Assembly: GCA_043738845.1 (NCBI GenBank)
Contig: JAYUFG010000003.1
Span: 1-20,819 of the forward strand
Source: Planctomycetaceae bacterium
Lineage (GTDB): Bacteria; Planctomycetota; Planctomycetia; Pirellulales; DASRSE01
DNA: 20,819 nt
Reading direction: 5' to 3'
Shown: piece by piece, positions 8,533 to 20,819 of the stretch
Layout: each line of letters starts with the position of its first letter
How positions within the stretch are numbered: the stretch's first letter is position 1
Position numbers and translations under genes: made by a program
Notes under the pieces: generated by a model
The model's input: the letters and a program-made list of their open reading frames with translations, nothing else
What the model was told of the DNA's origin: nothing
Databases searched by the model: none

Positions 8533-8609
8533 TTTGCGGTACAGGATTCGAACCTGTGACAGCCAGATTAGTAGTCTGGTGCTCTATCCGTTGAGCTAAC
8601 CACTCGCAA
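8533..8609 (-). tRNA. tRNA-like gene (Arg-type D-arm, anticodon ACU) with an interrupted acceptor stem. It may be a pseudogene or an atypical tRNA.
   Basis: The minus-strand sequence has a canonical D-arm (UAGCUCAACGGAUAGAGC, A20 present) and T-arm (ACAGG-UUCGAAU-CCUGU). The anticodon stem-loop is CCAGA-CUACUAA-UCUGG, giving anticodon ACU (plus-strand 8570..8572). The variable loop is 5 nt. The 3' acceptor strand is ACCGCAA followed by A73, with no encoded CCA. The 5' strand reads UUGCG-AGUG-GU, that is, the exact complement UUGCGGU interrupted by 4 nt. Depending on register, either the two terminal or the two basal acceptor pairs are mismatched. Confidence 0.5.
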
Positions 8610-8806: not shown

Positions 8807-9030
8807 CTACGGTTTCAATTCATTCCCAAACGCTCACCACTGGCCACACGGACTTCCAATCGTTTGCGGCGAACTTGGCTGGGCGAGGTGGTTCTGGCCC
8901 CAAAAAATAGTTGGGGTGGAATCTGTGCGGACGGGAATAATTTGGCGGCAAGGGAGCGATTCTACGCACATGGCGAGTGACTTTGGACGCTCGACCCGGA
9001 CTGCCCATTGTTTCGCGAGGAGTTGCTGTC

Positions 9031-10635
9031 ATGGAGATGCACGATTCGGCCTTGCCGTCGGTGGTCGATGATCTTGGGCTGTCACCGCTGGCACATGTTA
9101 AACATTGGCTGCGGTATGAGGCGGCTTGGTTTTTGGCCAGCCTGACGGGCCATGTGGTGGTGCTGCTGGTCGTTCTATTGGTTCTGAGTAATTTCGGGAC
9201 GCGAAAACAGGACGAGACATTTCCGCCGGAAGAATTCGATGCAGCGATGATCGAGCCGAAAGACAATTCGGACACGTTGGTTCACATCGACGCAACCATC
9301 ATTCCATCAACGCCGGAGCCGCCACCGCCTGCGACCGATATTACGCAGTACGATCCGCCGCCGTCGATTGGTGGGGAATCGGAGTCGAATGAAACGTCGC
9401 CTAATGCCGGTGGCCGACGTGGAAAAGAAGGTGTCCTTGTCCCCGGCACAACCGGCGAACGACAGGAGGTGTCCATTGGATGTTGGGGCAATAACGATCC
9501 GTATCGATTCGGCAAGGGTAATGGACCAACTGGCCCATTGGCCGGAACGCCCTTACGTCAGCGTGGTACGCCCAGGCCGGGAACGGGAATCACCCCGCAA
9601 TCCGAACGCTCCGTCGCCGCTGCCCTGTATTGGATCAGCCGGCATCAACTGCCCGACGGACATTGGAGCCTCAGCGAGTTCGACAAAAAGTGTACCGACA
9701 AGACCTGCACAGGCCACGGAGAGTCGGAAACCGACGCGGGTGCGACGGGACTTGGACTGCTTCCGTTCCTGGCGGCGGGCTGCACAAGCGAGAAAAAAGG
9801 ACCGTATCAAGAGAACGTCGGTCGCGGAGTCTATTGGCTGGTCTCGCATCAGAATCCGAAGGATGGCGATTTGGCGGTCGGCTCGAAAGGAAACGCCCAC
9901 ATGTACGCTCATGCGATTGCCACTATCGCGCTGTGCGAAGCGTATGCGATGTCGCCGCGTGAAAAAGAAACCGGCCGCGCGGCGCAAGCGGCCATCAATT
10001 TCATTGTCGCGGCACAAAATGCCGGGACGGGTGGTTGGCGTTATGAACCGGGACAAGATGGCGATACGTCGGTCGTCGGGTGGCAGGTCATGGCTCTTAA
10101 GAGTGCCCAAATGGCGTATCTGAATGTCCCTAAGTCGGCTTTCGACGGAGCCGATAAATGGTTGAAGTCGTGTTCGTCCGGAAACTATGGCGAACAGTTT
10201 TCATATCAGCCGGGTGGCGGTGCAACGCCGACGATGTCCTCGGTCGGATTGCTTTGTAGCCAGTATTTGCACCTGCGAAAAGATGATCCGAAACTGCAAG
10301 GAGGTCTCGACTACTTGCTGAAGCATCTGCCCAACAACGGAGAACGGGACATCTATTACTGGTACTATGCGACGCAGGTCATGCACAACGTTCCAGGCCA
10401 ACAATGGGACGAATGGAATCGGGCGATGCGAAAAATTTTGACGGAATCACAAGTTCGCGAAGGGTGTGCGGCGGGAAGCTGGGATCCTGCCCGGCCGAGC
10501 AATGATCGCTGGGGTCCGGCGGGAGGGCGGCTGATGGTGACGTGCCTGTCGTGCTTGACCCTGGAGGTTTATTACCGCTATTTGCCGCTGTTTCAGCTTG
10601 ATCAGGAGGAGCGCAACCGCTCGGAGGCGAAGTGA
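9031..10635 (+). CDS. Membrane-anchored protein with an alpha-alpha-toroid domain built from prenyltransferase/squalene-oxidase (QW-like) repeats. The ORF opens at 8977; the Met at 9031 is the likely start.
   Basis: One TM helix (AAWFLASLTGHVVVLLVVLLVLSNF) is followed by a Pro-rich linker (STPEPPPPATDITQYDPPPS). Repeated Q/H-x-x-DG-x-W-type motifs follow: YWISRHQLPDGHWS, YWLVSHQNPKDGDL, VAAQNAGTGGWRYEP, LLKHLPNNGERD. These are typical of terpene-cyclase/prenyltransferase beta-subunit-like repeats. Confidence 0.7.
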   Translation: MEMHDSALPSVVDDLGLSPLAHVKHWLRYEAAWFLASLTGHVVVLLVVLLVLSNFGTRKQDETFPPEEFDAAMIEPKDNSDTLVHIDATIIPSTPEPPPPATDITQYDPPPSIGGESESNETSPNAGGRRGKEGVLVPGTTGERQEVSIGCWGNNDPYRFGKGNGPTGPLAGTPLRQRGTPRPGTGITPQSERSVAAALYWISRHQLPDGHWSLSEFDKKCTDKTCTGHGESETDAGATGLGLLPFLAAGCTSEKKGPYQENVGRGVYWLVSHQNPKDGDLAVGSKGNAHMYAHAIATIALCEAYAMSPREKETGRAAQAAINFIVAAQNAGTGGWRYEPGQDGDTSVVGWQVMALKSAQMAYLNVPKSAFDGADKWLKSCSSGNYGEQFSYQPGGGATPTMSSVGLLCSQYLHLRKDDPKLQGGLDYLLKHLPNNGERDIYYWYYATQVMHNVPGQQWDEWNRAMRKILTESQVREGCAAGSWDPARPSNDRWGPAGGRLMVTCLSCLTLEVYYRYLPLFQLDQEERNRSEAK

Positions 10636-10726
10636 GCGTGTATTCCAGGGGTTGCAACGGCCGCAGCTTTGGAGGAAATTAAGGGGAGCGTCATCACTCT
10701 CGTTCGGACTTCTATTTCGCTTCTGG

Positions 10727-13654
10727 ATGTCTATGCTCCGCCTACGTGTCAGCGCAATTTTACTGGTGATTTGTTGGCTTTCTTCGTTGGCCCCGGCTGC
10801 GGACCAAGTCGTCGATTTTGTCCACGCCCTGCAAGAGGCGGGCTACGGCGACACGGCCGTCGAGTACATGCAGCAGTTGGAAAAGCAGCAGCGCATCCCG
10901 GAGGAACTCAAGGATACGTGGGATTTGGAATTTTACAACTCGTATGAAGCTCGAGCGAGGAATGCTTTTGGCGAGAAAGAAGCGACGGCCTCTAAAGTCG
11001 AATCGAAGAAGTACCTCGACAAGTTTCTCAAAGAGCATCCGAACCATCCCGATGTCGCCAAAGCCGTCTTAGGCTCGGCACTGGCTGCGCAGCGGCGAGG
11101 ACTTGCACTGCTCGCGTCGGCCAAGATCAATCCCAATAAGGAGCAAGCAGGTAACGACACGGCGGAAGCGCGGGCCGCGTTTGAGGAAGCCAAGCCCCGC
11201 TTTCAACAGGCCCTTGAGCGGTTTAAGAAAAAACTTGATGGGCTGAAAGTCCCCGGGAAAAATGCCAAGAAAAGGGAAACCGACGAGTATGAAACAGCGG
11301 TTAGCAACTTCATTGAAACCCGCTTTCAGGTTTCACTCACCGACGTTTACATCGCCCGCACAATGGCGGATCGAAAGGATCCTATTCGCGTGAAGTTGCT
11401 GCAAGGTGCCGCGAAGGAATTCGACTCGATCTTTCAGAAAAACCGCGAAAACATTTACGGTTTGGCCGCCCACATGTGGAACGGCAAAGTCGAAGAGGAA
11501 CAAGGCAACGTCGATAAAGCCGTAGACATCTACGACGAAGTGGCCAGTTATGGCCCGAACCTGAATGAACTTAAGCCCGACGCGCCGATTGATCCGCTCT
11601 TTGCGGAACTGCATCTGGCTCGCTTGCAACTGCTGTTGAAACAGAAGAAGTTTGACGACTTCGATACCGAAGCTAAGACTTGGCTCGACGCCTACAAGAA
11701 AAGCCGTAAGAACGTCGTGCAGAATTTCTATCAGGGAATCCAGCTTGAGTACGTCAAGTTCGCAATTGTTGCCGTCGAAAAAGCCACGGGCAAGAACAAG
11801 CTCCGCTATGAAAATGATATTACAACGATGCTCAAGGACATGGTCAAAATCCGCAGCGACTATCAGCTTGAGGCATTGCAGATATTCAAAGGTCGCAATA
11901 AATCGGCCGGGCAGGATCCGAAAACAATGGAAGAAGCTTTGGCCCTGGGGGATAATTCTCTACGCACTAAGGATTGGGCCGACGCGGAAAAAATGTTCGT
12001 TTTAGCACTGTCCTTGGCTCCTAAGAATGCTCCGCCTGCCACCCTGACAGAAGTTAAGGGCAAGCTGGCCTTTGTGCGATTCAACATTGCCCGCGAATTG
12101 TATACAGAAAAAAAATATGCGCAATCACTCGAAATTGCGGAAAAGGTAGCGGTCGATCCCGACGCGGGGGACGTTGGCTCGGTGTCCTCGGCGATGAGTG
12201 TGCAAGCGGCGTTTGGTTTGTATCTCGAGGCCCATAATGCTGAGAAGCCGGACAAAGAAGCGGAAGCGACCCATCTGGCCCGTATGAACAAGAACGCCGA
12301 AACGACCATTGCCAAATGGCCCGGCAAGCCGGAGGCCGACGATTCCCGCATGTTGCTCGCGCAGGCGTATCTGGTGATGGGCAAACTGGACGAGGCGGTT
12401 AAGGCTTATGACGGGGTGAACATCAAGTCCGAAAAATACGCTGCCGCCAAACACAGTGCGGGCCGGACGTTGTGGTATCGCTATGTACAGGAAAAACAAA
12501 AGTCGGAGAGTGATCGAAATCAAGAACAAATGATCGCCGACCGGAAGAAGGGGGTCGAACTCTTGCTGGCCAGTTTCGCGGCTCAACAAAAAGCCAAGGA
12601 GCCGGGGAAGCCCTTCCCGAAAGCACTGCTCGATACGCAACTGCTCCTGGGCGAGATCGAACTCGAAGGGAACCAACCCGACAAGTCGGTGCAGTACTTA
12701 CAGTCCCTGGTTGATGTCCTCTCGACGGAAAAGTCTGACCAATTTGACTCGGCCGTCACACTCCGCGTTTTTACCGCTGCCGTGCGGGCCTACTCGGCCA
12801 AGAATGATTTGGCCAAGGCGGGCGAAGTCGGTTTGAAGATGATCGAAATGGGACCGGACACGCCGCAAGTGAATAATGTCCTCATGGAGTTCGCGAAACT
12901 CCTCGACTTAGAACGCAAAAAAGCCGTTGCCGACGTCACCACGAAACCGTCTGCTCAGTCGGAGAAAAAACTCGCCGACACCAATAAAATGCTGGGGACA
13001 ATCCTCAGTAAACTCATGGAACGCAAGCAGCTTTCGGCCGTGAGCTTGCTGCTGATTGCCGAAACATTCGCGAACATTGGCGATCTGGATCGGGCCAATC
13101 AACAATATTCATCCCTCTTGAACATCATCGAGAAAGAACCCAACTCGGAAAACGGCAAAGCCTTAGCTAAGGCTGAGGTGCGAATTCTTACCAATCAAAT
13201 TGACCTGAAACGCAATAGCGGCGATTTCGACGGCGCAAGAGAGAGTGCCAAAGCCATCATCGCCAAAAACCCCAACGCGCTGGAACCACGTTTACTTGAG
13301 TGTCGTATTCTGCAAGACAAAGCGGAAAAATCCAACGACGCAGCCGACTTCAATGCAGCGGCGACCAGTTGGGCCCAACTGCGAGCGAAGTTAGGTACGA
13401 AACGTTCGCCCGAGTATTATGAGGTTCTCTACAACTCAGCGAATTGTCTCGTCTTTGAGGCTGAACAATTGAAGGCCAAGAAAAAAGAAGATTCCGCTGC
13501 CAAGGCCCTGTTGGCGGAAAAAATGCTCAATTCCGTCTTGGCGACGGGGGCCGCCTCCGCTGGTCCCGACGTGGTTGCAAAGTACAAAGAACTCGCTGCG
13601 AAAGCGGCCCTCCTTCAAGGTCGTAAAGAGACTCCCAAGGAATCGCCCAAATAG
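10727..13654 (+). CDS. Large secreted Lys/Ala/Glu-rich alpha-helical (TPR-like) repeat protein of unknown function. The ORF opens at 10598; the Met at 10727 gives a signal peptide.
   Basis: The N-terminus MSMLRLRVSAILLVICWLSSLAPAAD is signal-peptide-like. The remaining ~950 aa have low complexity dominated by A, K, E and L, with recurrent helical hairpin-like segments. There are no catalytic motifs. The codon usage is clean and no competing ORFs are present. Confidence 0.65.
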   Translation: MSMLRLRVSAILLVICWLSSLAPAADQVVDFVHALQEAGYGDTAVEYMQQLEKQQRIPEELKDTWDLEFYNSYEARARNAFGEKEATASKVESKKYLDKFLKEHPNHPDVAKAVLGSALAAQRRGLALLASAKINPNKEQAGNDTAEARAAFEEAKPRFQQALERFKKKLDGLKVPGKNAKKRETDEYETAVSNFIETRFQVSLTDVYIARTMADRKDPIRVKLLQGAAKEFDSIFQKNRENIYGLAAHMWNGKVEEEQGNVDKAVDIYDEVASYGPNLNELKPDAPIDPLFAELHLARLQLLLKQKKFDDFDTEAKTWLDAYKKSRKNVVQNFYQGIQLEYVKFAIVAVEKATGKNKLRYENDITTMLKDMVKIRSDYQLEALQIFKGRNKSAGQDPKTMEEALALGDNSLRTKDWADAEKMFVLALSLAPKNAPPATLTEVKGKLAFVRFNIARELYTEKKYAQSLEIAEKVAVDPDAGDVGSVSSAMSVQAAFGLYLEAHNAEKPDKEAEATHLARMNKNAETTIAKWPGKPEADDSRMLLAQAYLVMGKLDEAVKAYDGVNIKSEKYAAAKHSAGRTLWYRYVQEKQKSESDRNQEQMIADRKKGVELLLASFAAQQKAKEPGKPFPKALLDTQLLLGEIELEGNQPDKSVQYLQSLVDVLSTEKSDQFDSAVTLRVFTAAVRAYSAKNDLAKAGEVGLKMIEMGPDTPQVNNVLMEFAKLLDLERKKAVADVTTKPSAQSEKKLADTNKMLGTILSKLMERKQLSAVSLLLIAETFANIGDLDRANQQYSSLLNIIEKEPNSENGKALAKAEVRILTNQIDLKRNSGDFDGARESAKAIIAKNPNALEPRLLECRILQDKAEKSNDAADFNAAATSWAQLRAKLGTKRSPEYYEVLYNSANCLVFEAEQLKAKKKEDSAAKALLAEKMLNSVLATGAASAGPDVVAKYKELAAKAALLQGRKETPKESPK

Positions 13655-13798: not shown

Positions 13799-15820
13799 AT
13801 GGTCGAGTTCGGGCGGTTGGCGGCGGCACACCACAAAGCACAGCGCGACCTCCTCGCCGCAGCGGATGCGCACGGCCATTGGATCGGCGAGTTGGCGAGT
13901 TCCGCCCTCTCCACCGCGACGGCCGTCAGCGCACTGTCACTCGCCGCGCGACATGCCAAACCCGACGGTTCAACACGCTGGGGGACGCCCGATGGTCGCC
14001 AGCAACTCAACGATCTGATCTTGGCGGGAATGCGTTGGTTGGCCGAACATGTGAATCCCGACGGCGGCTGGGGTGATACCGATCTCAGCACGTCGAACAT
14101 TGCAACGACGATGCTCGTCCGGGCGGCTTTTCATTTGACGGCGGTTCCCGCCAAACACGCCGACCTTCTCACGCGAGCGGCTGAGTACACGCAAGCTCAG
14201 GGAGAGATCGCAGGGCTTCGCAAGCGATATGGCAAAGACAAGACGTTCGCCGTGCCGATTTTGACGAACTGCGCCTTGGCGGGCATGGTCCCTTGGCGAG
14301 ACGTCTCGGCGTTGCCGTTTGAACTGGCTTGTTTGCCGCGTGGGTTTTTTAAGTTCCTGCGGCTGCCGGTTGTGAGCTATGCAATTCCCGCCCTCGTGGC
14401 GATTGGCCAATGTCGATTTTATCATCGACCGCCAATGAACCCGCTTATTCGTTGGATGCGTCGGCGGTCGATTGCTAAAAGCCTGCGCGTATTGAAAGAG
14501 ATGCAGCCCGACAGTGGCGGATATTTAGAGGCGACGCCGCTGACCAGTTTCGTCGTGATGAGTTTGGCAAGCATGAATCTCGTGGAAAACCCCGTGACCC
14601 TGAGCGGCCTTGATTTTTTGGTCGCGTCGGTGCGACCCGATGGAAGTTGGCCGATTGATACGAACTTGGCGACCTGGAACACGACGTTGGCGTTGAATGC
14701 ACTCGATTGTGATGTTGCGGGCGAGACCGCTGAAGCTGTGGGCAACGATAAGTCTGCGGCCTGGTACGCGAACTGTCTCGATTGGGTTGGGTCGTGTCAA
14801 CACCGGGTCGAGCATCCCTTCACGGGAGCGGCACCGGGCGGATGGGGCTGGAGCGATTTGAGTGGTGCCGTTCCCGACGCCGACGACACGGCCAGTGCGC
14901 TGCTCGCATTGGCAAAGTGGAGGGGCGTTGTGAAAACGGATAAAAACGCAACGGCAAAAAGTTCCTTCTCCGCTCGGGCCGCGATTCAATGGCTGCTCGA
15001 TTTGCAAAATCGCGATGGAGGTTGGCCGACGTTTTGTCGGGGCTGGGGGGCGTTGCCGTTTGATCGCAGTGCGGCCGATTTGACCGCCCATGCGATGCGG
15101 GCGATGTGGGCGTGGCGGGATGATTCGCTTCCGGTCGATCCGGCGTTTCAAATTCCGCGAGTAGACGAGGTTACACTTCGATCACTTCAACGATCCGCGA
15201 TTGAGCGTGGCTTTGCCTATCTGGAAAAAAAGCAACGGGCGGATGGAAGTTGGGTTCCCTTGTGGTTCGGCAATCAGCATGATCCGCAGGAAGAAAATCC
15301 GGTTTATGGAACGGCTCGCGTATTGCTGGCCTATCGCGATCTACAGCGGCTGGATGGGGTGACGGCGAAGCGGGGAATCGCTTGGCTCGTGGAACATCAA
15401 AACGCCGACGGCGGTTGGGGCGGCGGACCAAAGTTGCAACCGGCAATTTCAATAATGGCATCGCCCAAAAACGGACAGGCCTCACCGGACGAATCGAAGT
15501 CGCGTCGCATCCAGGCGGAAAAAGTCGAACCAGCGGTCGTTTCGAGCATTGAGGAGACAGCTTTGGCTCTCGAAACCTTGGCCTCGCTGGGGCCGCAGTA
15601 CGTGCCGCAAACCGTTGTGGAAAAAGGACTTGAATGGCTTGTCTCGGCGGTTGAGGGGCATCGCCACCGTGATTGCTCGCCCATCGGTTTCTACTTTGCC
15701 AAGTTGTGGTATTATGAGAGACTGTATCCTTTGACGTTTACGGTGGCCGCCCTGGGAGCCGCCGTGACCCGACTTCGCCCACCAACAAGTTCCCAGCCAA
15801 CCCCGGTCCAGCACGTATAG
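13799..15820 (+). CDS. shc: Squalene-hopene cyclase
   Basis: The protonating DxDDTA motif is present (VPDADDTASALLAL). Multiple QW repeats are present (LQNRDGGW, KKQRADGSW, EHQNADGGWG). The N-terminal region is HGHWIGEL...ALSLAA. At 673 aa the length is typical for SHC. A ~20-aa insertion follows the last GGWG relative to characterised SHCs. Confidence 0.9.
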   Translation: MVEFGRLAAAHHKAQRDLLAAADAHGHWIGELASSALSTATAVSALSLAARHAKPDGSTRWGTPDGRQQLNDLILAGMRWLAEHVNPDGGWGDTDLSTSNIATTMLVRAAFHLTAVPAKHADLLTRAAEYTQAQGEIAGLRKRYGKDKTFAVPILTNCALAGMVPWRDVSALPFELACLPRGFFKFLRLPVVSYAIPALVAIGQCRFYHRPPMNPLIRWMRRRSIAKSLRVLKEMQPDSGGYLEATPLTSFVVMSLASMNLVENPVTLSGLDFLVASVRPDGSWPIDTNLATWNTTLALNALDCDVAGETAEAVGNDKSAAWYANCLDWVGSCQHRVEHPFTGAAPGGWGWSDLSGAVPDADDTASALLALAKWRGVVKTDKNATAKSSFSARAAIQWLLDLQNRDGGWPTFCRGWGALPFDRSAADLTAHAMRAMWAWRDDSLPVDPAFQIPRVDEVTLRSLQRSAIERGFAYLEKKQRADGSWVPLWFGNQHDPQEENPVYGTARVLLAYRDLQRLDGVTAKRGIAWLVEHQNADGGWGGGPKLQPAISIMASPKNGQASPDESKSRRIQAEKVEPAVVSSIEETALALETLASLGPQYVPQTVVEKGLEWLVSAVEGHRHRDCSPIGFYFAKLWYYERLYPLTFTVAALGAAVTRLRPPTSSQPTPVQHV

Positions 15821-15953
15821 TTTTCGCGTGAGCGAAAACGACCCATTTTCCGTTGAGCGTTGTTAAATGAGAACCGTCTGAGCGCGCGAACGGGGCTAAG
15901 AACTGGCCAGCCCCGCGTTCAGCGTCACGAGCAAATCCAACCAGAGGCACACC

Positions 15954-17819
15954 TTGGCGACTGCAATCACGGAATCAAATCTGGACCAAGGGTCGGAGAT
16001 TTCCGCCCCCGTCGAGAAATCGAAACGCCGCAAGACGAGCCACTTGAAGGACGTCCCGCAAAGCCGCGCAATGCGAGAATCGCTCCGCGCAAAATGTGCG
16101 GAAGTCACGGCCAAACTCGACAAGTCTCGCCCACTCGGCAAAGACGAAATGGAAGTGGTCGCCCGCTCGATCCTGGCGGAAACGAATCAGCCAGAGGGTT
16201 ATCTCGGTTGGATCATGGTGATCTTGGCTTCGGAGTTTTGGCGGGATCAGGTGGCGGCCGCGCCTCCGTCGCGTCGGTTGCTGTTGTTGCCCCATTGTTT
16301 GAAACATGCGGAAGGTTGTCCCGCCGATTACGACGAGTTTGGACTGGACTGTCGTCAATGCGGGGCCTGTAGCATCGCCGATTTCCGCTCGATTGCCGAG
16401 GACATGGGCTACAAGGTACTCGTCGCCGAAGGCTCGCCGATTGTCTTGAAAATAATTATCAGTGGCTACGTCGATGCGATTGTCGGCGTGGCCTGTTTGA
16501 ACGTCTTGGAAAAGGCCATCGACAAAATTCTCCTGGCGGGAATTCCCTGCATGGCCGTCCCACTCCTGTCGAGCGACTGCCGCAACACGTCGGTCGATGA
16601 AGATTGGGTCGATCAAATGGTGCGGCTCGAACAAAAGGCGGCCGCCGTGGAGACGACAAGTTACGTTCACCTCATGCGGGAAGCGGCCAGTCTGTTTGAA
16701 CGCAAAAAACTCGAACGGATCGTCCCCCGACTTCGCGGCGGGCCAAGTCTGGCCGAGGCCAACGGTCACGGCGTGGGCGGTCTCGATCCGGTCGCTGGCA
16801 CGGAGGCTATCGCTTACGACTTTCTCGCCAAGGGGGGCAAGCACTCCCGTCCTTTTATCACGCTCGCCGTTTATGATGCTCTGACGGGTGGAAACGCCAC
16901 GAGTTTCGGCGGTGCGGCCCATTTAACCAGCTTGCCCGATGCGATCAAGCGTGTGGCGATGTCGATTGAGACGTTTCATAAAGCGTCGCTCGTTCACGAC
17001 GACATTGAAGACGACGACCCATTTCGTTATGGCGAGCCGACCTTGCACAAGACTTACGGTCTCTCGACGGCGATCAACGTCGGCGATTATTTGATTGGGA
17101 TGGGTTATCGCTTGGTCAGTCGCGAAATGAAAACGCTGGGAGCCGAAGTCGTCGCCGATATTTTGGACCGCTTGGCCGACGCCCACATGAAATTGTCTGA
17201 AGGACAAGGTGCCGAGTTGCTCTGGCGAGATTCGCGAGAAAAATCGCTCAAGCCGATTGACGCTTTGAAAATTTATGCCTTGAAAACCGCTCCCGCATTT
17301 GAAGCGGCGTTGTACTGCGGAGCGAGACTGGCGGGGAGCGTCGAAAAATACAGCAAACCCATCAGCCAATTTGCCCAACACCTGGGCGTTGCTTTTCAAA
17401 TTCTCAACGATCTCAAAGATTGGGACGGAGATAATCACAACAAGCTCACGGCGGGCGGAGACTTGGTCGGCGGACGGCCCACCGTGCTGTGGGCCTTAGC
17501 GTTGGAAGGTCTGTCGGCCGAAAATCGCCAAGAACTGGAAACGCTGTCGCAATTGAAACCGTTGTCGCCTGCCAATTTGCAAAACATTCGCCGCTTATAC
17601 GAACAGGCGGGCGTGTTTGAAAAGGCGGCGCGACTGGTCGATAAATATCGCGAGCGTGCCGAAGCGGTCGCCGATTCGCTTGAGCCAGAGGAGTTGCGTC
17701 GCTTATTTTACTACTTGATTGATACCGTCTTAGAGCAGCATGAAACGGCCGTCGTCCCGAAGATTGAACCGATTCCGTTGACGAAATTCGTGCCACTGAA
17801 ATCCGTTCCCACGTCGTAA
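15954..17819 (+). CDS. Fusion protein: an N-terminal Cys-rich DUF116-like domain plus a C-terminal trans-polyprenyl diphosphate synthase domain with a non-canonical second Asp-rich motif
   Basis: The N-terminal ~230 aa carry a Cys cluster (LPHCLKHAEGCPADYDEFGLDCRQCGACSI) and IISGYVDAIVGVAC, which resemble DUF116. The C-terminal ~330 aa have the first Asp-rich motif LVHDDIEDDD with small residues (A, S) at positions -5/-4, a GQ motif (LSEGQGAELL), KTAPAFEAALYCGARLAG, and a second motif FQILNDLKDWDGD. That second motif is NDxxD rather than the canonical DDxxD. Confidence 0.8.
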   Translation: MATAITESNLDQGSEISAPVEKSKRRKTSHLKDVPQSRAMRESLRAKCAEVTAKLDKSRPLGKDEMEVVARSILAETNQPEGYLGWIMVILASEFWRDQVAAAPPSRRLLLLPHCLKHAEGCPADYDEFGLDCRQCGACSIADFRSIAEDMGYKVLVAEGSPIVLKIIISGYVDAIVGVACLNVLEKAIDKILLAGIPCMAVPLLSSDCRNTSVDEDWVDQMVRLEQKAAAVETTSYVHLMREAASLFERKKLERIVPRLRGGPSLAEANGHGVGGLDPVAGTEAIAYDFLAKGGKHSRPFITLAVYDALTGGNATSFGGAAHLTSLPDAIKRVAMSIETFHKASLVHDDIEDDDPFRYGEPTLHKTYGLSTAINVGDYLIGMGYRLVSREMKTLGAEVVADILDRLADAHMKLSEGQGAELLWRDSREKSLKPIDALKIYALKTAPAFEAALYCGARLAGSVEKYSKPISQFAQHLGVAFQILNDLKDWDGDNHNKLTAGGDLVGGRPTVLWALALEGLSAENRQELETLSQLKPLSPANLQNIRRLYEQAGVFEKAARLVDKYRERAEAVADSLEPEELRRLFYYLIDTVLEQHETAVVPKIEPIPLTKFVPLKSVPTS

Positions 17820-17866
17820 ATGTTTTTGAGTGTGCCAGTGGTACCCGACGCCCTCCTTTTGCAAAT

Positions 17867-18424
17867 TTGCGTACTGTGTCCTCACCCCGCACTCGACCTG
17901 ATTTGATGACGCTGGTGCGGTTGTTTTACGACGCGCCAGAGAACCTAGGCAAATTTGCGGAGGTCCGTGCCGAGGAAATGCCCGCCCCGTTTCGCACGCT
18001 CTTGGCTCATCAAGGGCACATGACCGAGACGGTCGAGGCCTTTCATCATTCGCCGGTGGATGTGCGGGTTTTAGAAACTGAAATTGAAGATTCGCATTAC
18101 GCACGAAAAATACTGTTGGCCCGTCAAAGCGATGGCAAAGTTGTCCAGTTCGGCATCGTCCGGCTCGATTTTGCCTATGTGAGTGCCGAGGTTCGTCGCG
18201 AAATCGAATCGCAAAAAATTCCGCTCGGTCGGGTGTTAATTCAGCACAATGTTATGCGGGAAATACAGTTGACCAAGTTGTGGAAGGTTACGCCGGGGAG
18301 CGATTTGCAAAACTACTTTGGCATTTCGGCGACGGTGACGACGTTCGGTCGTACCGCATTGATAAATTGCAACGGTCAACCAGCGGTCGAACTTTTGGAA
18401 ATTGTGGCACCGATGGATGCGTAA
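17867..18424 (+). CDS. Small protein resembling the chorismate pyruvate-lyase (UbiC/DUF98) fold family. The assignment is tentative.
   Basis: The 185-aa ORF sits 48 bp after the previous gene. Its size and pattern (LLAHQGHMTETVEAF..., VRVLETEIEDSHYARKILLARQSDGKVVQFGIVRLDF, LGRVLIQHNV) are reminiscent of the UbiC-like/UTRA fold. This is similarity by eye only, with no strict motif. Confidence 0.45.
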   Translation: MRTVSSPRTRPDLMTLVRLFYDAPENLGKFAEVRAEEMPAPFRTLLAHQGHMTETVEAFHHSPVDVRVLETEIEDSHYARKILLARQSDGKVVQFGIVRLDFAYVSAEVRREIESQKIPLGRVLIQHNVMREIQLTKLWKVTPGSDLQNYFGISATVTTFGRTALINCNGQPAVELLEIVAPMDA

Positions 18425-18479
18425 AATATCGAATACTCCCGCTTAGCCCGCCCGTCCACGGTCGGCGCGGATAAACCAA

Positions 18480-19742
18480 ATGAAGACGAACGATTCTCTC
18501 ACTTTCGATTGCATAGTCATTGGCGGCGGGCCAGCGGGCACGACCGTCGCCGCGCTCGTGGCGCAGGCAGGGCATCGCGTGCTGCTCCTTGAGCGGGAGA
18601 AGTTTCCCCGCTTTCATGTGGGCGAGTCTCTCATGCCTGAGGCGTACTGGACGTTTCAACGCCTGGGCGTACTCGACAAAATGAAACAGAGCCACCATAC
18701 CAAAAAGTACAGTGTGCAATTCGTCAATCAGACGGGCAAGGAATCACAACCATTTTACTTCTTCGAGCAGTACGACCATGAGTCGTCGCAAACGTGGCAG
18801 ATTGTCCGTAGCGAATTCGATCAAATGCTGTTCGACAACGCTCGCGAAAAAGGGGCCGATTGTCGCGATCAAACTCGCGTTATGGAAGTTCTGTTTGAGG
18901 GCGACCGGGCGGTCGGTGTCAAAGCTCAAGCCGCCGATGGGACCGTTCAAGAATTTCGCAGTCGCGTGATCGTCGATGCGTCGGGGCTGGTCGCATTTAT
19001 TGCCAACCGACTAAAACTTGTCCAATCGATTCCTGAACTTCGCAAGTCGGCCATCTGGACCTATTTTAAGGGTGCCCGTCGCGAAGCCGGTTTTGACGAA
19101 GGGGCCACGCTCGTTCTGCACACCAGCGACAAGCAAGGTTGGTTTTGGTACATCCCGCTGGCCAACGACATTGTGAGCGTGGGCGTCGTCGGCAATGTTG
19201 ACTATTTGCTCAAAGGTCGCGGCACGCCCGAACAGATTTTCAACGAAGAACTCGACAACTGTGTCGCGGCCAAATCGCGTGTTGCGGTCGGCGAGCGGGT
19301 CGATGATTTTCGCGTCTTACGAGAATTTTCGTATGCCTCAAAGCAGCCCGCCGGAAATGGCTGGGTCTTGGTCGGAGATGCCTTCGCGTTTCTCGATCCG
19401 ATCTATTCGTCGGGCGTGTTTCTCGCGCTCAAGTCGGGCGAACTGGCCGCCGACTGTGTGGCCGATGCGCTGACCACGGGCGACACTTCCGCTGAACGAT
19501 TGGGCCGCTGGGTCGAGCCGTTTGCCGCCGGAATGCACTGGATTCGCAAACTGGTTTTTGCGTTCTACAACGATAATTTCAGCTTTGGCCAGTTCATGAA
19601 AGAGTTCCCGCAACACAAAGGAAATTTGACCGACCTGCTCGTCGGCAAAGTTTTTCATCCTTCGGCAGGTGAAATCTTCAAGGACATGCAACCGATACTG
19701 GACCGCATGCAAGAGGGCGAAGTTGCGGAAACGGCGAAGTAA
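18480..19742 (+). CDS. Flavin-dependent halogenase family protein (Trp_halogenase-type FAD enzyme)
   Basis: It has a GxGxxG motif (IVIGGGPAGTTVAA). The VGESLMP...HTKKYSVQFVN segment aligns to VGEATIP...SYKVAIKFIN of tryptophan halogenases, including the catalytic lysine. The WxWxIP signature is present (QGWFWYIPL). The C-terminal signature FxxPxxSxG is present (FLDPIYSSGV). Length is 420 aa. Confidence 0.75.
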   Translation: MKTNDSLTFDCIVIGGGPAGTTVAALVAQAGHRVLLLEREKFPRFHVGESLMPEAYWTFQRLGVLDKMKQSHHTKKYSVQFVNQTGKESQPFYFFEQYDHESSQTWQIVRSEFDQMLFDNAREKGADCRDQTRVMEVLFEGDRAVGVKAQAADGTVQEFRSRVIVDASGLVAFIANRLKLVQSIPELRKSAIWTYFKGARREAGFDEGATLVLHTSDKQGWFWYIPLANDIVSVGVVGNVDYLLKGRGTPEQIFNEELDNCVAAKSRVAVGERVDDFRVLREFSYASKQPAGNGWVLVGDAFAFLDPIYSSGVFLALKSGELAADCVADALTTGDTSAERLGRWVEPFAAGMHWIRKLVFAFYNDNFSFGQFMKEFPQHKGNLTDLLVGKVFHPSAGEIFKDMQPILDRMQEGEVAETAK

Positions 19743-19924: not shown

Positions 19925-20819
19925 ATGCGCCGCAAACAGGTTCTCAATTACTTGACGTATCTCGTAGTTCGCTGGTTTGTCTGTCTGATACAGGCATTGC
20001 CACTTGCGACGTGTCACCGGGCTTGCCGTTTTCTGGCGTGGTTGGCGGCCGATGTGGTCAAGCTCCGGCGGGAAGTCGTGCAGGAAAACCTCCAACACGC
20101 TTTTCCGGAAATGACCGACCGCGCTCGGGGCAAACTCATTCGTCGGATGTGGGAACATTTGTTCCTGATGGTGGTCGAGATTGCCCACGTGCCACGAAAA
20201 ATTCACGACACGAATTGGCGTGATTATTTTTCTTTTCAGAATGGTCATCGGGCGAGCGAAATCTTTTTCGATGGCCGGCCGGGGGTGGTCGTCTCGGCCC
20301 ATTTTGGTAATTTCGAATTGGGGGCGTATATCTTTGGTATTTTTCATTTTGAAACATGGTCGATCGCCCGCGAGTTGGATAATCCTTATCTGCATCGGTG
20401 GCTGAATGAATTTCGCGGCTCCAAGGGACAGTTTATTTTGCCGAAGCAAGGAAGTGCAGAAAAGGCAAATCAAGTTCTCGAGTCGGGCGGAACCCTCACG
20501 ATCTTGGCCGATCAATACGCGGGGCCAAAGGGGTGTTGGGTTGATTTTTTTGGTCGGCCCGCCAGCACGCATAAAGCGATTGCTCTGTTTTCGCTCGCAC
20601 ACAACGCACCCCTGGCGGTGATGTCGGCCCGGCGGCTCAGCAATCAACCACTCCATTATGAAATGGACGTAACGGCCGTCGCCGATCCGGCGCGGAATGA
20701 TCCCGAGACGCGCGGCGTTCGCGAACTAACGCAGTGGTACACGTCCAAACTGGAAGAGGTGATCCGCCGCTCGCCCGAACAATACTGGTGGATTCATCGT
20801 CGCTGGAAAGATCAACAAC
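19925..20819 (+). CDS. LpxL/HtrB-family (lipid A biosynthesis lauroyl/myristoyl-type) acyltransferase. It is partial and continues beyond the window end.
   Basis: Frame 2 is open from the ATG at 19925 (first ATG after an in-frame TGA at 19886) to the window end. The ORF track omits it because no stop lies in the window. The translation MRRKQVLNYLTYLVVRWF... contains the family acyltransferase motif SAHFGNFE (HxGNxE) and TILADQYAGPKG. The listed overlapping ORFs 19669..20223(+) and 19895..20656(-) are in other frames and probably spurious. Confidence 0.75.
   Translation, partial: MRRKQVLNYLTYLVVRWFVCLIQALPLATCHRACRFLAWLAADVVKLRREVVQENLQHAFPEMTDRARGKLIRRMWEHLFLMVVEIAHVPRKIHDTNWRDYFSFQNGHRASEIFFDGRPGVVVSAHFGNFELGAYIFGIFHFETWSIARELDNPYLHRWLNEFRGSKGQFILPKQGSAEKANQVLESGGTLTILADQYAGPKGCWVDFFGRPASTHKAIALFSLAHNAPLAVMSARRLSNQPLHYEMDVTAVADPARNDPETRGVRELTQWYTSKLEEVIRRSPEQYWWIHRRWKDQQ

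Follow-up and report, generated by a model that had tools for sequence, protein, structure and literature searches.

A conserved four-gene block in Pirellulales joins a divergent squalene-hopene-cyclase-like gene and a DUF116-prenyl synthase fusion to a chorismate-lyase-fold gene and an optional halogenase: a candidate meroterpenoid lipid pathway

Introduction

Two studies of cyclase evolution single out the planctomycete proteins that resemble squalene-hopene cyclase (SHC), termed SHC-like, as the main uncharacterised branch of the triterpenoid cyclases (PMC7306690, PMC12414744). According to the first, these proteins retain catalytic residues and have a genomic context that points to a non-squalene precursor (PMC7306690); the second describes the clade as of unknown function, calls for its characterisation, and places it as sister to cyclases that require a substrate epoxidised by a flavoenzyme (PMC12414744). 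Knowing the SHC-like substrate would constrain the evolution of epoxide- versus alkene-using cyclases (PMC7306690, PMC12414744). Here we analyse a block of four genes headed by an SHC-like cyclase gene in DNA from a Planctomycetaceae bacterium (GenBank assembly GCA_043738845.1, contig JAYUFG010000003.1, positions 1 to 20,819 of the forward strand); this whole stretch of 20,819 nucleotides (nt) is referred to below as the window.

Relatives of the other three genes have been met before in separate settings. A fusion of DUF116 to a prenyl synthase was seen in 2015 in Pirellula staleyi as Psta_0175 (PMC5898192). Planctomycetales strain 10988, whose nearest neighbours are Thermogutta and Thermostilla, makes 3,5-dibromo-p-anisic acid (Panter et al. 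2019, bioRxiv 10.1101/723874), and the adjacent genes baaA (chorismate-lyase-like) and baaB (flavin halogenase) were proposed, without genetic validation, as its origin, 4-hydroxybenzoate being made and then brominated at positions 3 and 5 (bioRxiv 10.1101/723874). A 2025 review still lists this pathway as postulated (PMC12078418). Elsewhere, the class II cyclase MstE cyclises a dihydroxybenzoate bearing a C20 chain (PMC12414744).

Results

Four co-directional genes in a conserved order

A metagenome scaffold (ENA ERZ28573524 scaffold_2177) matches the window at 100% identity, and relatives of the window carry the labels Pirellulales or Pirellulaceae. Four plus-strand open reading frames (ORFs) of the window, together spanning 13799-19742, make up the block:

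13799-15820, plus strand: SHC-like cyclase, 673 amino acids (aa), ATG start
15954-17819, plus strand: DUF116-prenyl synthase fusion, 621 aa, TTG start
17867-18424, plus strand: chorismate-lyase-fold protein (lyase-like below), 185 aa, TTG start
18480-19742, plus strand: flavin-dependent halogenase, 420 aa, ATG start

An earlier interpretation of the letters and their translations (the sequence-only reading) had placed these four co-directional genes correctly; its gaps of 134, 48 and 56 were coordinate differences, and the true intergenic distances are 133 nt between cyclase and fusion, 47 nt between fusion and lyase-like gene (86 nt if counted from an internal ATG), and 55 nt between lyase-like gene and halogenase. 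Median gaps in related contigs are estimated at 39, 58 and 58 nt. A terminator scan placed no terminator-like site in the three gaps, all of its 14 matches lying within ORFs and near chance level (~9.6 expected), and a promoter scan returned no promoter-like site; both scans are uninformative for a planctomycete. The internal ATG, at 17906, is the start in the public gene call for the lyase-like gene and gives a protein of 172 aa. The 185-aa form is nevertheless plausible and is favoured here because the residues PDL upstream of that ATG are conserved among homologues. An exact look-up found no record for the 185-aa form or for the homologue P0280 of Lignipirellula cremea.

Conservation was surveyed with the fusion as anchor in 80 metagenome loci and several long contigs; each count covers the loci where sequence sufficed, and antisense shadow ORFs produced by greedy ORF clustering were left out after an overlap check against real genes. 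In 43 of 50 loci the gene immediately upstream of the fusion is the cyclase, and in 51 of 56 the one immediately after the fusion is the lyase-like gene, compared with 40-55% of loci for the other neighbours of the fusion; the halogenase comes next after the lyase-like gene in 15 of 38 blocks. Cyclase, fusion and lyase-like gene thus form the core, to which the halogenase is often, though not always, added as a fourth gene, so that of the order read from the window the first three positions hold among relatives and the last is facultative. The arrangement goes beyond chance: the block recurs in dozens of independent contigs at fusion identities of 57-80%, some of them with unrelated flanks. 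Two further contigs with wholly different flanks carry, in one case, the triad without halogenase and, in the other, all four genes behind insertion-sequence genes.

With the halogenase as anchor, a genome scan found cyclase and synthase in only 2 of 80 loci. Most of what it returned were paralogues of a separate halogenase clade (clade C, below) or lineages without the block, and the low figure is explained by the halogenase tree, which shows that the scan mixes clades; anchoring on the fusion reversed the impression of poor conservation. Where the halogenase is missing, the lyase-like gene keeps to the synthase, and in phyla without synthase and cyclase the halogenase keeps to the lyase-like gene: Planctomycetaceae, Phycisphaerae, Verrucomicrobiota and Acidobacteriota have the pair by itself. 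Both modules thus share the lyase-like gene as their node. From spacing and conserved gene order, the block appears best explained as a conserved Pirellulales transcription unit of two modules.

Downstream of the block, many Pirellulales have further genes in the same direction, which encode an SSF transporter, a 4HBT hotdog thioesterase, a toroid protein of 309 aa that resembles RabGGTase beta, and an ABC exporter made up of a LolD-like ABC ATPase and an FtsX-type permease (loci L102 13550-21173, L119, L120, L122, L124, L153 and L087 9851-11830). In L087 the lyase-like gene, the thioesterase and the toroid gene follow tightly after the synthase, without a halogenase. The window lacks this extension, and an LpxL-type gene and an unknown 253-aa gene stand there instead.

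Gene 1 encodes a divergent SHC-like cyclase

The label squalene-hopene cyclase, given to gene 1 by the sequence-only reading, proved an over-call. The 673-aa protein matches Pfam SQHop_cyclase_N at 63 bits and SQHop_cyclase_C at 90 bits. It scores 82.2 bits with the NCBIfam model hopene_cyclase (TIGR01507), which has a cut-off of 431.1, and 114 bits with the broader squalene/oxidosqualene model squalene_cyclas, below its cut-off of 322.7; the solved SHC 1gsz matches at 41.6 bits only. The catalytic motif is as follows:

14870-14890, plus strand: VPDADDT (aa 358-364), the DxDD acid motif of protonation-initiated cyclases, aligning to SHC PDVDDT

V, P, D360, D362, D363 and T of this motif are invariant among 45 orthologues. 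No squalene-synthesis or hpn gene occurs in the window or in the conserved, recurrent neighbourhood. Judged by domains, scores and motif, the protein is a divergent SHC-like class II terpenoid cyclase and no canonical squalene-hopene cyclase, and its origin, divergence, catalytic residues and non-squalene gene context appear to fit the published planctomycete SHC-like clade.

In 22 of 41 loci the SHC-like gene is closely preceded by a gene, in one orientation or the other, that resembles radical-SAM/SPASM genes, weakly those of AhbD/NirJ type (for example, L086 1986-3266); the window does not have it.

The DUF116-prenyl synthase fusion has an altered active site

The sequence-only reading of gene 2 as a DUF116-polyprenyl synthase fusion is borne out by Pfam, which assigns DUF116 (132.5 bits, ~aa 75-222) and polyprenyl_synt PF00348 (150.3 bits, ~aa 287-543) to the 621-aa protein. 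The predicted fusion of DUF116 to a trans-prenyl diphosphate synthase is, on these matches, genuine. Its relatives number thousands, the best 120 of which share 69-80% identity with long invariant stretches. Four features mark it:

16293-16586, plus strand: Cys-rich core of DUF116 (C115, C122, C133, C136, C139, C181, C199, C209)
16998-17018, plus strand: first Asp-rich motif DDIEDDD (aa 349-355), aligning to DDIMD...RRG of the P. horikoshii geranylgeranyl diphosphate (GGPP) synthase 1wy0
17022-17033, plus strand: RYG in place of RRG after the first Asp-rich motif, with R and Y in 74/74 and G in 73/74 orthologues
17406-17432, plus strand: second Asp-rich motif NDLKDWDGD (aa 485-493), with Asn for the first Asp, aligning to 1wy0 DDVLD

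The eight cysteines, including a CxxCxxC, are invariant in an alignment of 38 sequences and present in at least 72 of 74 in a wider set, and the domain probably binds a metal or an Fe-S cluster; its predicted fold is a generic flavodoxin-like alpha/beta one whose structural neighbours are uninformative.

In the synthase domain, the first Asp-rich motif is near-invariant (at least 73 of 74 orthologues) and N485 is invariant (74/74), giving a second motif NDLxD rather than the canonical DDxxD. The domain is closer to short-chain (C15-C25) than to long-chain synthases, and no NCBIfam equivalog for product chain length came near its cut-off, the best scores against cut-offs being 133/450 (encapsulin-cargo prenyl transferase), 113/468 (IdsA) and 105/500 (GGPP synthase). 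A change from D to N at the same position of the second motif occurs in chrysanthemyl diphosphate synthase, an irregular-coupling enzyme derived from farnesyl diphosphate (FPP) synthase (PMC3518182). Because of this shared change, ordinary head-to-tail elongation should not be presumed for the fusion; the likeness offers a lead only.

A second assembly of the same sequence (L002 8049-9914) splits the fusion into a DUF116 gene (180 aa) and a synthase gene (422 aa). The DUF116 part is 99% identical, and the split could reflect either an error in sequencing or a genuine break in the gene.

The third gene product is predicted to have a chorismate-lyase/DUF98 fold

The 185-aa protein has no match in Pfam or NCBIfam, even at E = 1. 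In a profile search it gave a marginal match to the DUF98 protein 2nwi (E = 0.02), and it has 2,744 relatives at E <= 0.001; JGI pipelines annotate homologues as "chorismate-pyruvate lyase". An AlphaFold model built with 41 homologues reached a mean confidence (pLDDT) of 91.6. The best Foldseek match to this model was again 2nwi (E 7e-9, TM score 0.70-0.79), followed by Escherichia coli chorismate lyase UbiC, 1fw9 (E 2e-5, TM score 0.58-0.61); GntR UTRA domains match it likewise. The model has a chorismate-lyase/DUF98 fold, in agreement with the chorismate-lyase-like assignment made from the letters, lyase activity being predicted at most.

Homologues share an invariant Arg in a YxRxILL motif and an invariant C-terminal Glu, which align weakly with WLREILL and LTELF of UbiC, at an hhalign probability of only 2.6%. 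In UbiC these segments carry the product-binding Arg and the catalytic Glu.

Two arrangements of the lyase-like gene depart from that of the window. In a marine Pirellulaceae locus (L008 9505-9989), cyclase, fusion and halogenase are present and the 484-nt gap between fusion and halogenase has no lyase-like ORF. In a 6.6-Mb Pirellulales genome (L004 3477-12340), the lyase-like gene stands apart from cyclase and synthase. There it comes after a HemN-like radical-SAM gene, and the array also encodes an AMP-binding protein, a PQQ-type beta-propeller and two dehydrogenases, one for aldehydes and one of the Fe-alcohol type; 1.4 kb downstream is a gene for a 4HBT thioesterase.

The fourth gene product belongs to the flavin-dependent halogenases

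Solved halogenases match the 420-aa protein at 228-131 bits (8zop 228, CndH (3e1t) 200, PltA 164, CmlS 153), and non-halogenating flavoenzymes far below this (geranylgeranyl reductase 51, squalene monooxygenase 28). Pfam Trp_halogenase scores 89.5 bits, over a cut-off of 21, and the model GG-red-SF scores 136, under a cut-off of 158.8. The catalytic hallmarks that the sequence-only reading had pointed out are invariant among 106 relatives (G15xGxxG20, K76, W221xW223xI225P226 and F304xDPxxSxG312), and K76 lines up with the corresponding Lys in CndH and 8zop. These scores and motifs indicate a genuine member of the flavin-dependent halogenase family. The protein was also considered as a geranylgeranyl reductase and this was rejected on the 51 bits against 228-131. 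CndH, PltA and Bmp2 act on aromatic or pyrrole substrates; no relevant literature on PDB 8zop was found. The window holds no carrier protein or adenylating enzyme, and in other phyla a PaaK-like ligase accompanies halogenase relatives.

In a tree of halogenases, clade A holds the window protein, and nearly all of its members directly follow a lyase-like gene. Clade B (Phycisphaerae, Verrucomicrobiota, Acidobacteriota) mostly has a HemN-like radical-SAM neighbour and in several cases a lyase-like gene too. Clade C is large and separate, with planctomycetes, nine of them having a MarR-family gene before the halogenase, and Vicinamibacterales.

A cluster found across phyla without cyclase or synthase combines a HemN-like radical-SAM enzyme, a lyase-like gene, a halogenase and an SSF transporter, often with a PaaK-like adenylating ligase and a 150-aa membrane protein. 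It occurs in Phycisphaerae, Verrucomicrobiota, Planctomycetaceae and Vicinamibacterales (L079 8062-14359; L083 823-3996; L082 2-5025; L068 9376-13878; L015/L022/L023/L051/L056). Cultured planctomycetes with a paralogous clade C halogenase include Blastopirellula marina DSM 3645 (L021 9406-11224) and those of L024 and L032; the gene before it encodes a MarR-family regulator, not a lyase-like protein, and all halogenase motifs are kept.

Flanking genes of the window

Around the block lie the following genes:

8536-8603, minus strand: tRNA gene (Rfam RF00005, 52.8 bits), in the gap between the Band_7 and 552-aa genes
8977-10635: 552-aa prenyltransferase/squalene-oxidase-repeat protein, with a weak SQHop_cyclase_C match
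10598-13654: 1018-aa TPR protein, lying with the 552-aa gene directly upstream of the block
19925-20819, plus strand: LpxL-type acyltransferase, cut by the window end and starting 182 nt after the halogenase

The tRNA, unrelated to the block, was the only match in an Rfam search of the window. The repeat-protein and TPR genes were considered as members of the unit and rejected, as they accompany the block only in the window's own lineage. The acyltransferase gene, which the sequence-only reading had noted as following downstream, falls outside the unit: no LpxL gene follows the block in any of the 18 related loci with enough sequence (0/18), and it was rejected as a pathway member. Its full counterpart in locus L001 matches Pfam Lip_A_acyltrans, with an NCBIfam score of 128 bits, below the cut-off of 248.

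Discussion

A candidate pathway and its alternatives

What we observe are gene identities, motifs, a fold, operon-like spacing and a conserved unit; from these we infer each chemical step that follows, above all the convergence of two modules. Module 1 would consist of the SHC-like class II cyclase and the DUF116-prenyl diphosphate synthase, and module 2 of the chorismate-lyase-fold enzyme and the flavin-dependent halogenase. The lyase-like enzyme would convert chorismate to 4-hydroxybenzoate and pyruvate, and the halogenase, where present, would draw on FADH2, O2 and halide to place halogen on the ring, ortho to its hydroxyl group. The synthase domain would provide a non-squalene prenyl diphosphate, and ring and chain would be joined by a prenyl-transfer enzyme encoded outside the window. 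The SHC-like enzyme could then cyclise the prenyl chain through protonation by its DxDD acid, giving a cyclised aryl-prenyl (meroterpenoid) lipid, optionally halogenated.

That one operon makes such a prenylated, cyclised and optionally halogenated hydroxybenzoate lipid is the reading we tentatively favour, at somewhat less than an even chance, and of the two products that the sequence-only reading had put forward it is the prenylated, possibly halogenated phenolic one that is kept, with the reservation that no aromatic prenyltransferase joins its halves. In its support are a unit that would be under selection, the lyase-like gene as hub, variants of the L087 type, intact catalytic motifs, and the literature on SHC-like context and on MstE.

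Several observations weigh against it. Its main weakness is the absent aromatic prenyltransferase, since neither the window nor the recurrent neighbour families contain an enzyme of UbiA/MenA or ABBA type; the RabGGTase-beta-like toroid is a candidate only for the prenyl transfer and lies outside the window. The NDxxD and RYG changes keep the product of the synthase from being assigned, and the predicted chorismate-lyase activity rests on the modelled fold, without a Pfam match. The halogenase is found in just 15 of 38 blocks, and the lyase-like/halogenase pair occurs without cyclase and synthase in several phyla. Moreover, part of the block's adjacency may be inherited rather than functional, because the wider synteny of Pirellulales keeps functionally unrelated genes nearby too (ATP-grasp, peptidase, ribosomal protein S18).

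Some of these points would suit two independent pathways that share an operon, genes 1-2 leading to a cyclised non-squalene terpenoid and genes 3-4 to free halogenated 4-hydroxybenzoate, a small diffusible metabolite methylated elsewhere, so that the products never meet. We regard this close rival as a serious possibility, short of probable. It would account for a block without aromatic prenyltransferase, for the pairs that occur in several phyla without cyclase or synthase, and for halogenase clades A and B tracking the lyase-like gene; the halogenase is gained or lost inside an otherwise fixed array, and strain 10988, with adjacent baaA and baaB, makes the non-prenylated 3,5-dibromo-p-anisic acid. 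It agrees poorly with the position of the lyase-like gene beside the synthase in 51 of 56 loci, including the ~60% without halogenase, for which a free halo-benzoate pathway is unfit because the halogenase is absent there, or with L087, where the genes for a thioesterase and a prenyltransferase-like protein are packed tightly with the lyase-like gene; the operon-like gaps also argue against it. A housekeeping role is unlikely. Here Pirellulales would rely on the fusion as their main prenyl diphosphate synthase, while the lyase-like enzyme and the hotdog thioesterase would feed a quinone-type or other essential prenylated cofactor, and cyclase and halogenase would be accessory. The very strong conservation of the fusion is indeed more like that of a core gene than of a patchy secondary-metabolite gene, and quinone pathways bring together a chorismate-using enzyme, a thioesterase and a prenyl synthase, a logic that the set recalls; yet no menaquinone or ubiquinone equivalog model matches any of the genes, the conserved set is without a ring prenyltransferase, decarboxylase or methyltransferase, and none of the known quinone pathways involves a DxDD cyclase.

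The two remaining alternatives assign the halogenase or the cyclase a different substrate. If the halogenase acted on the prenyl chain, a halonium or halohydrin at the terminal double bond would prime cyclisation much as an epoxidase does. This we consider very improbable: the halogenase is absent from most blocks and across phyla tracks the lyase-like gene, not the cyclase; the cyclase keeps the full DxDD typical of alkene protonation; and the closest solved halogenases act on aromatic or pyrrole substrates. The idea draws on the operon shared by flavoenzyme and cyclase and on the sister relationship of the SHC-like clade to cyclases of flavoenzyme-epoxidised substrates (PMC12414744). Scarcely any credence is left for a halogenated or otherwise modified hopanoid, the other product that the sequence-only reading had envisaged, in which gene 1 would be a hopene cyclase and the other genes would decorate hopanoids. 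SQHop_cyclase domains and a DxDD motif are present, but with a hopene-cyclase score of 82 against a cut-off of 431 gene 1 is better taken as a divergent SHC-like cyclase than as an SHC, and that branch therefore loses its basis; squalene-synthesis and hpn genes are absent from window and conserved neighbourhood, and the published view is that the SHC-like clade does not use squalene (PMC7306690).

What the block adds

None of its components is new by itself: the SHC-like clade, the baaA/baaB-type pair and the DUF116 fusion had each been met earlier, as had a non-squalene context for SHC-like genes (PMC7306690). The pairing of lyase-like gene and halogenase, which the sequence-only reading had noted within the block, had already been proposed as baaA/baaB (bioRxiv 10.1101/723874). 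Within the searchable literature, three things appear new: the union of these components as one conserved unit, the lyase-like gene as constant partner of cyclase and synthase, and the NDxxD/RYG active site of the synthase.

The block turns the open question of the SHC-like substrate into an experiment of three or four genes. Among cultured species, Lignipirellula cremea has the SHC-like gene and Pirellula staleyi the fusion, and genetic tools have been reported (PMC11958385). Generalising the favoured meroterpenoid pathway, the SHC-like clade might act on aryl-prenyl substrates (4-hydroxybenzoate-derived and sometimes halogenated) or on irregularly coupled prenyl substrates from the DUF116-NDxxD synthase, and new cyclic meroterpenoid lipids would then be near-universal in Pirellulales; we hold this broader proposal to be rather doubtful. 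Under this proposal the lipids would be a potential new class of biomarkers, and a product that is a stable polycyclic lipid could serve as a taxon-specific biomarker. The proposed baaA/baaB route to brominated aromatics gains a wider genomic context, and as no fewer than four phyla have the pair of lyase-like gene and halogenase, halogenated hydroxybenzoates in soil and water bacteria may be commoner than the single reported compound suggests.

Comparison with known systems

Like squalene-hopene cyclase (TIGR01507; PDB 1gsz/2sqc), the window cyclase has a two-domain alpha/alpha-toroid with QW-type repeats and a DxDD(T) motif; unlike it, it is paired with a prenyl synthase of head-to-tail type and not with squalene-synthesis genes. 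With the planctomycete SHC-like clade (PMC7306690; PMC12414744) it shares a length of 550-700 aa and a great distance from both SHC and oxidosqualene cyclases, whereas the lyase-like neighbour, the facultative halogenase and the NDxxD motif of the synthase go unmentioned in the main texts on that clade, as far as these are available (PMC7306690; PMC12414744). The fusion resembles chrysanthemyl diphosphate synthase (PMC3518182) in having N for the first Asp of the second Asp-rich region on a fold of FPP-synthase type; the plant enzyme, however, has no DUF116, and the likeness, being that of one residue, is a lead only.

Among variant-B flavin-dependent halogenases, 8zop, CndH, PltA, Bmp2 and CmlS are the best sequence matches to the window halogenase and share its Lys and WxWxIP, whereas the long C-terminal domains of CndH and CmlS are missing from its 420 aa. 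In Pseudoalteromonas, Bmp5 and Bmp6 likewise set a chorismate lyase and a flavin-dependent brominase to work on 4-hydroxybenzoate (bioRxiv 10.1101/723874). Bmp5, which has ~44% similarity to BaaB (bioRxiv 10.1101/723874), differs in that it also decarboxylates, with a P450 coupling enzyme following it, and there is no P450 here.

Genes 3-4 of the window are a putative baaA/baaB-type pair, an orthology proposed from architecture only: as in strain 10988, a planctomycete lyase-like gene stands directly before a flavin halogenase on the same strand. Presumably the neighbours of that strain, Thermogutta and Thermostilla, are themselves placed in Pirellulales by GTDB. The window pair differs in sitting behind an SHC-like cyclase and a DUF116-synthase fusion, neither of which is mentioned as a neighbour in the text of Panter et al. 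(bioRxiv 10.1101/723874). The whole block is closest in outline to the pathways of MstE, Lon15 and AtoE (PMC12414744), which also combine an aromatic acid head, a prenyl diphosphate synthase, a flavoenzyme and a class II cyclase. The window block, in contrast, has no clustered aromatic prenyltransferase; MstE, unlike the window cyclase, is a monodomain DxD enzyme; and Lon15 and AtoE use chains epoxidised by epoxidases, whereas the flavoenzyme of the window is a halogenase. By analogy, the pathway favoured here would parallel the meroterpenoid logic of the MstE and longestin types.

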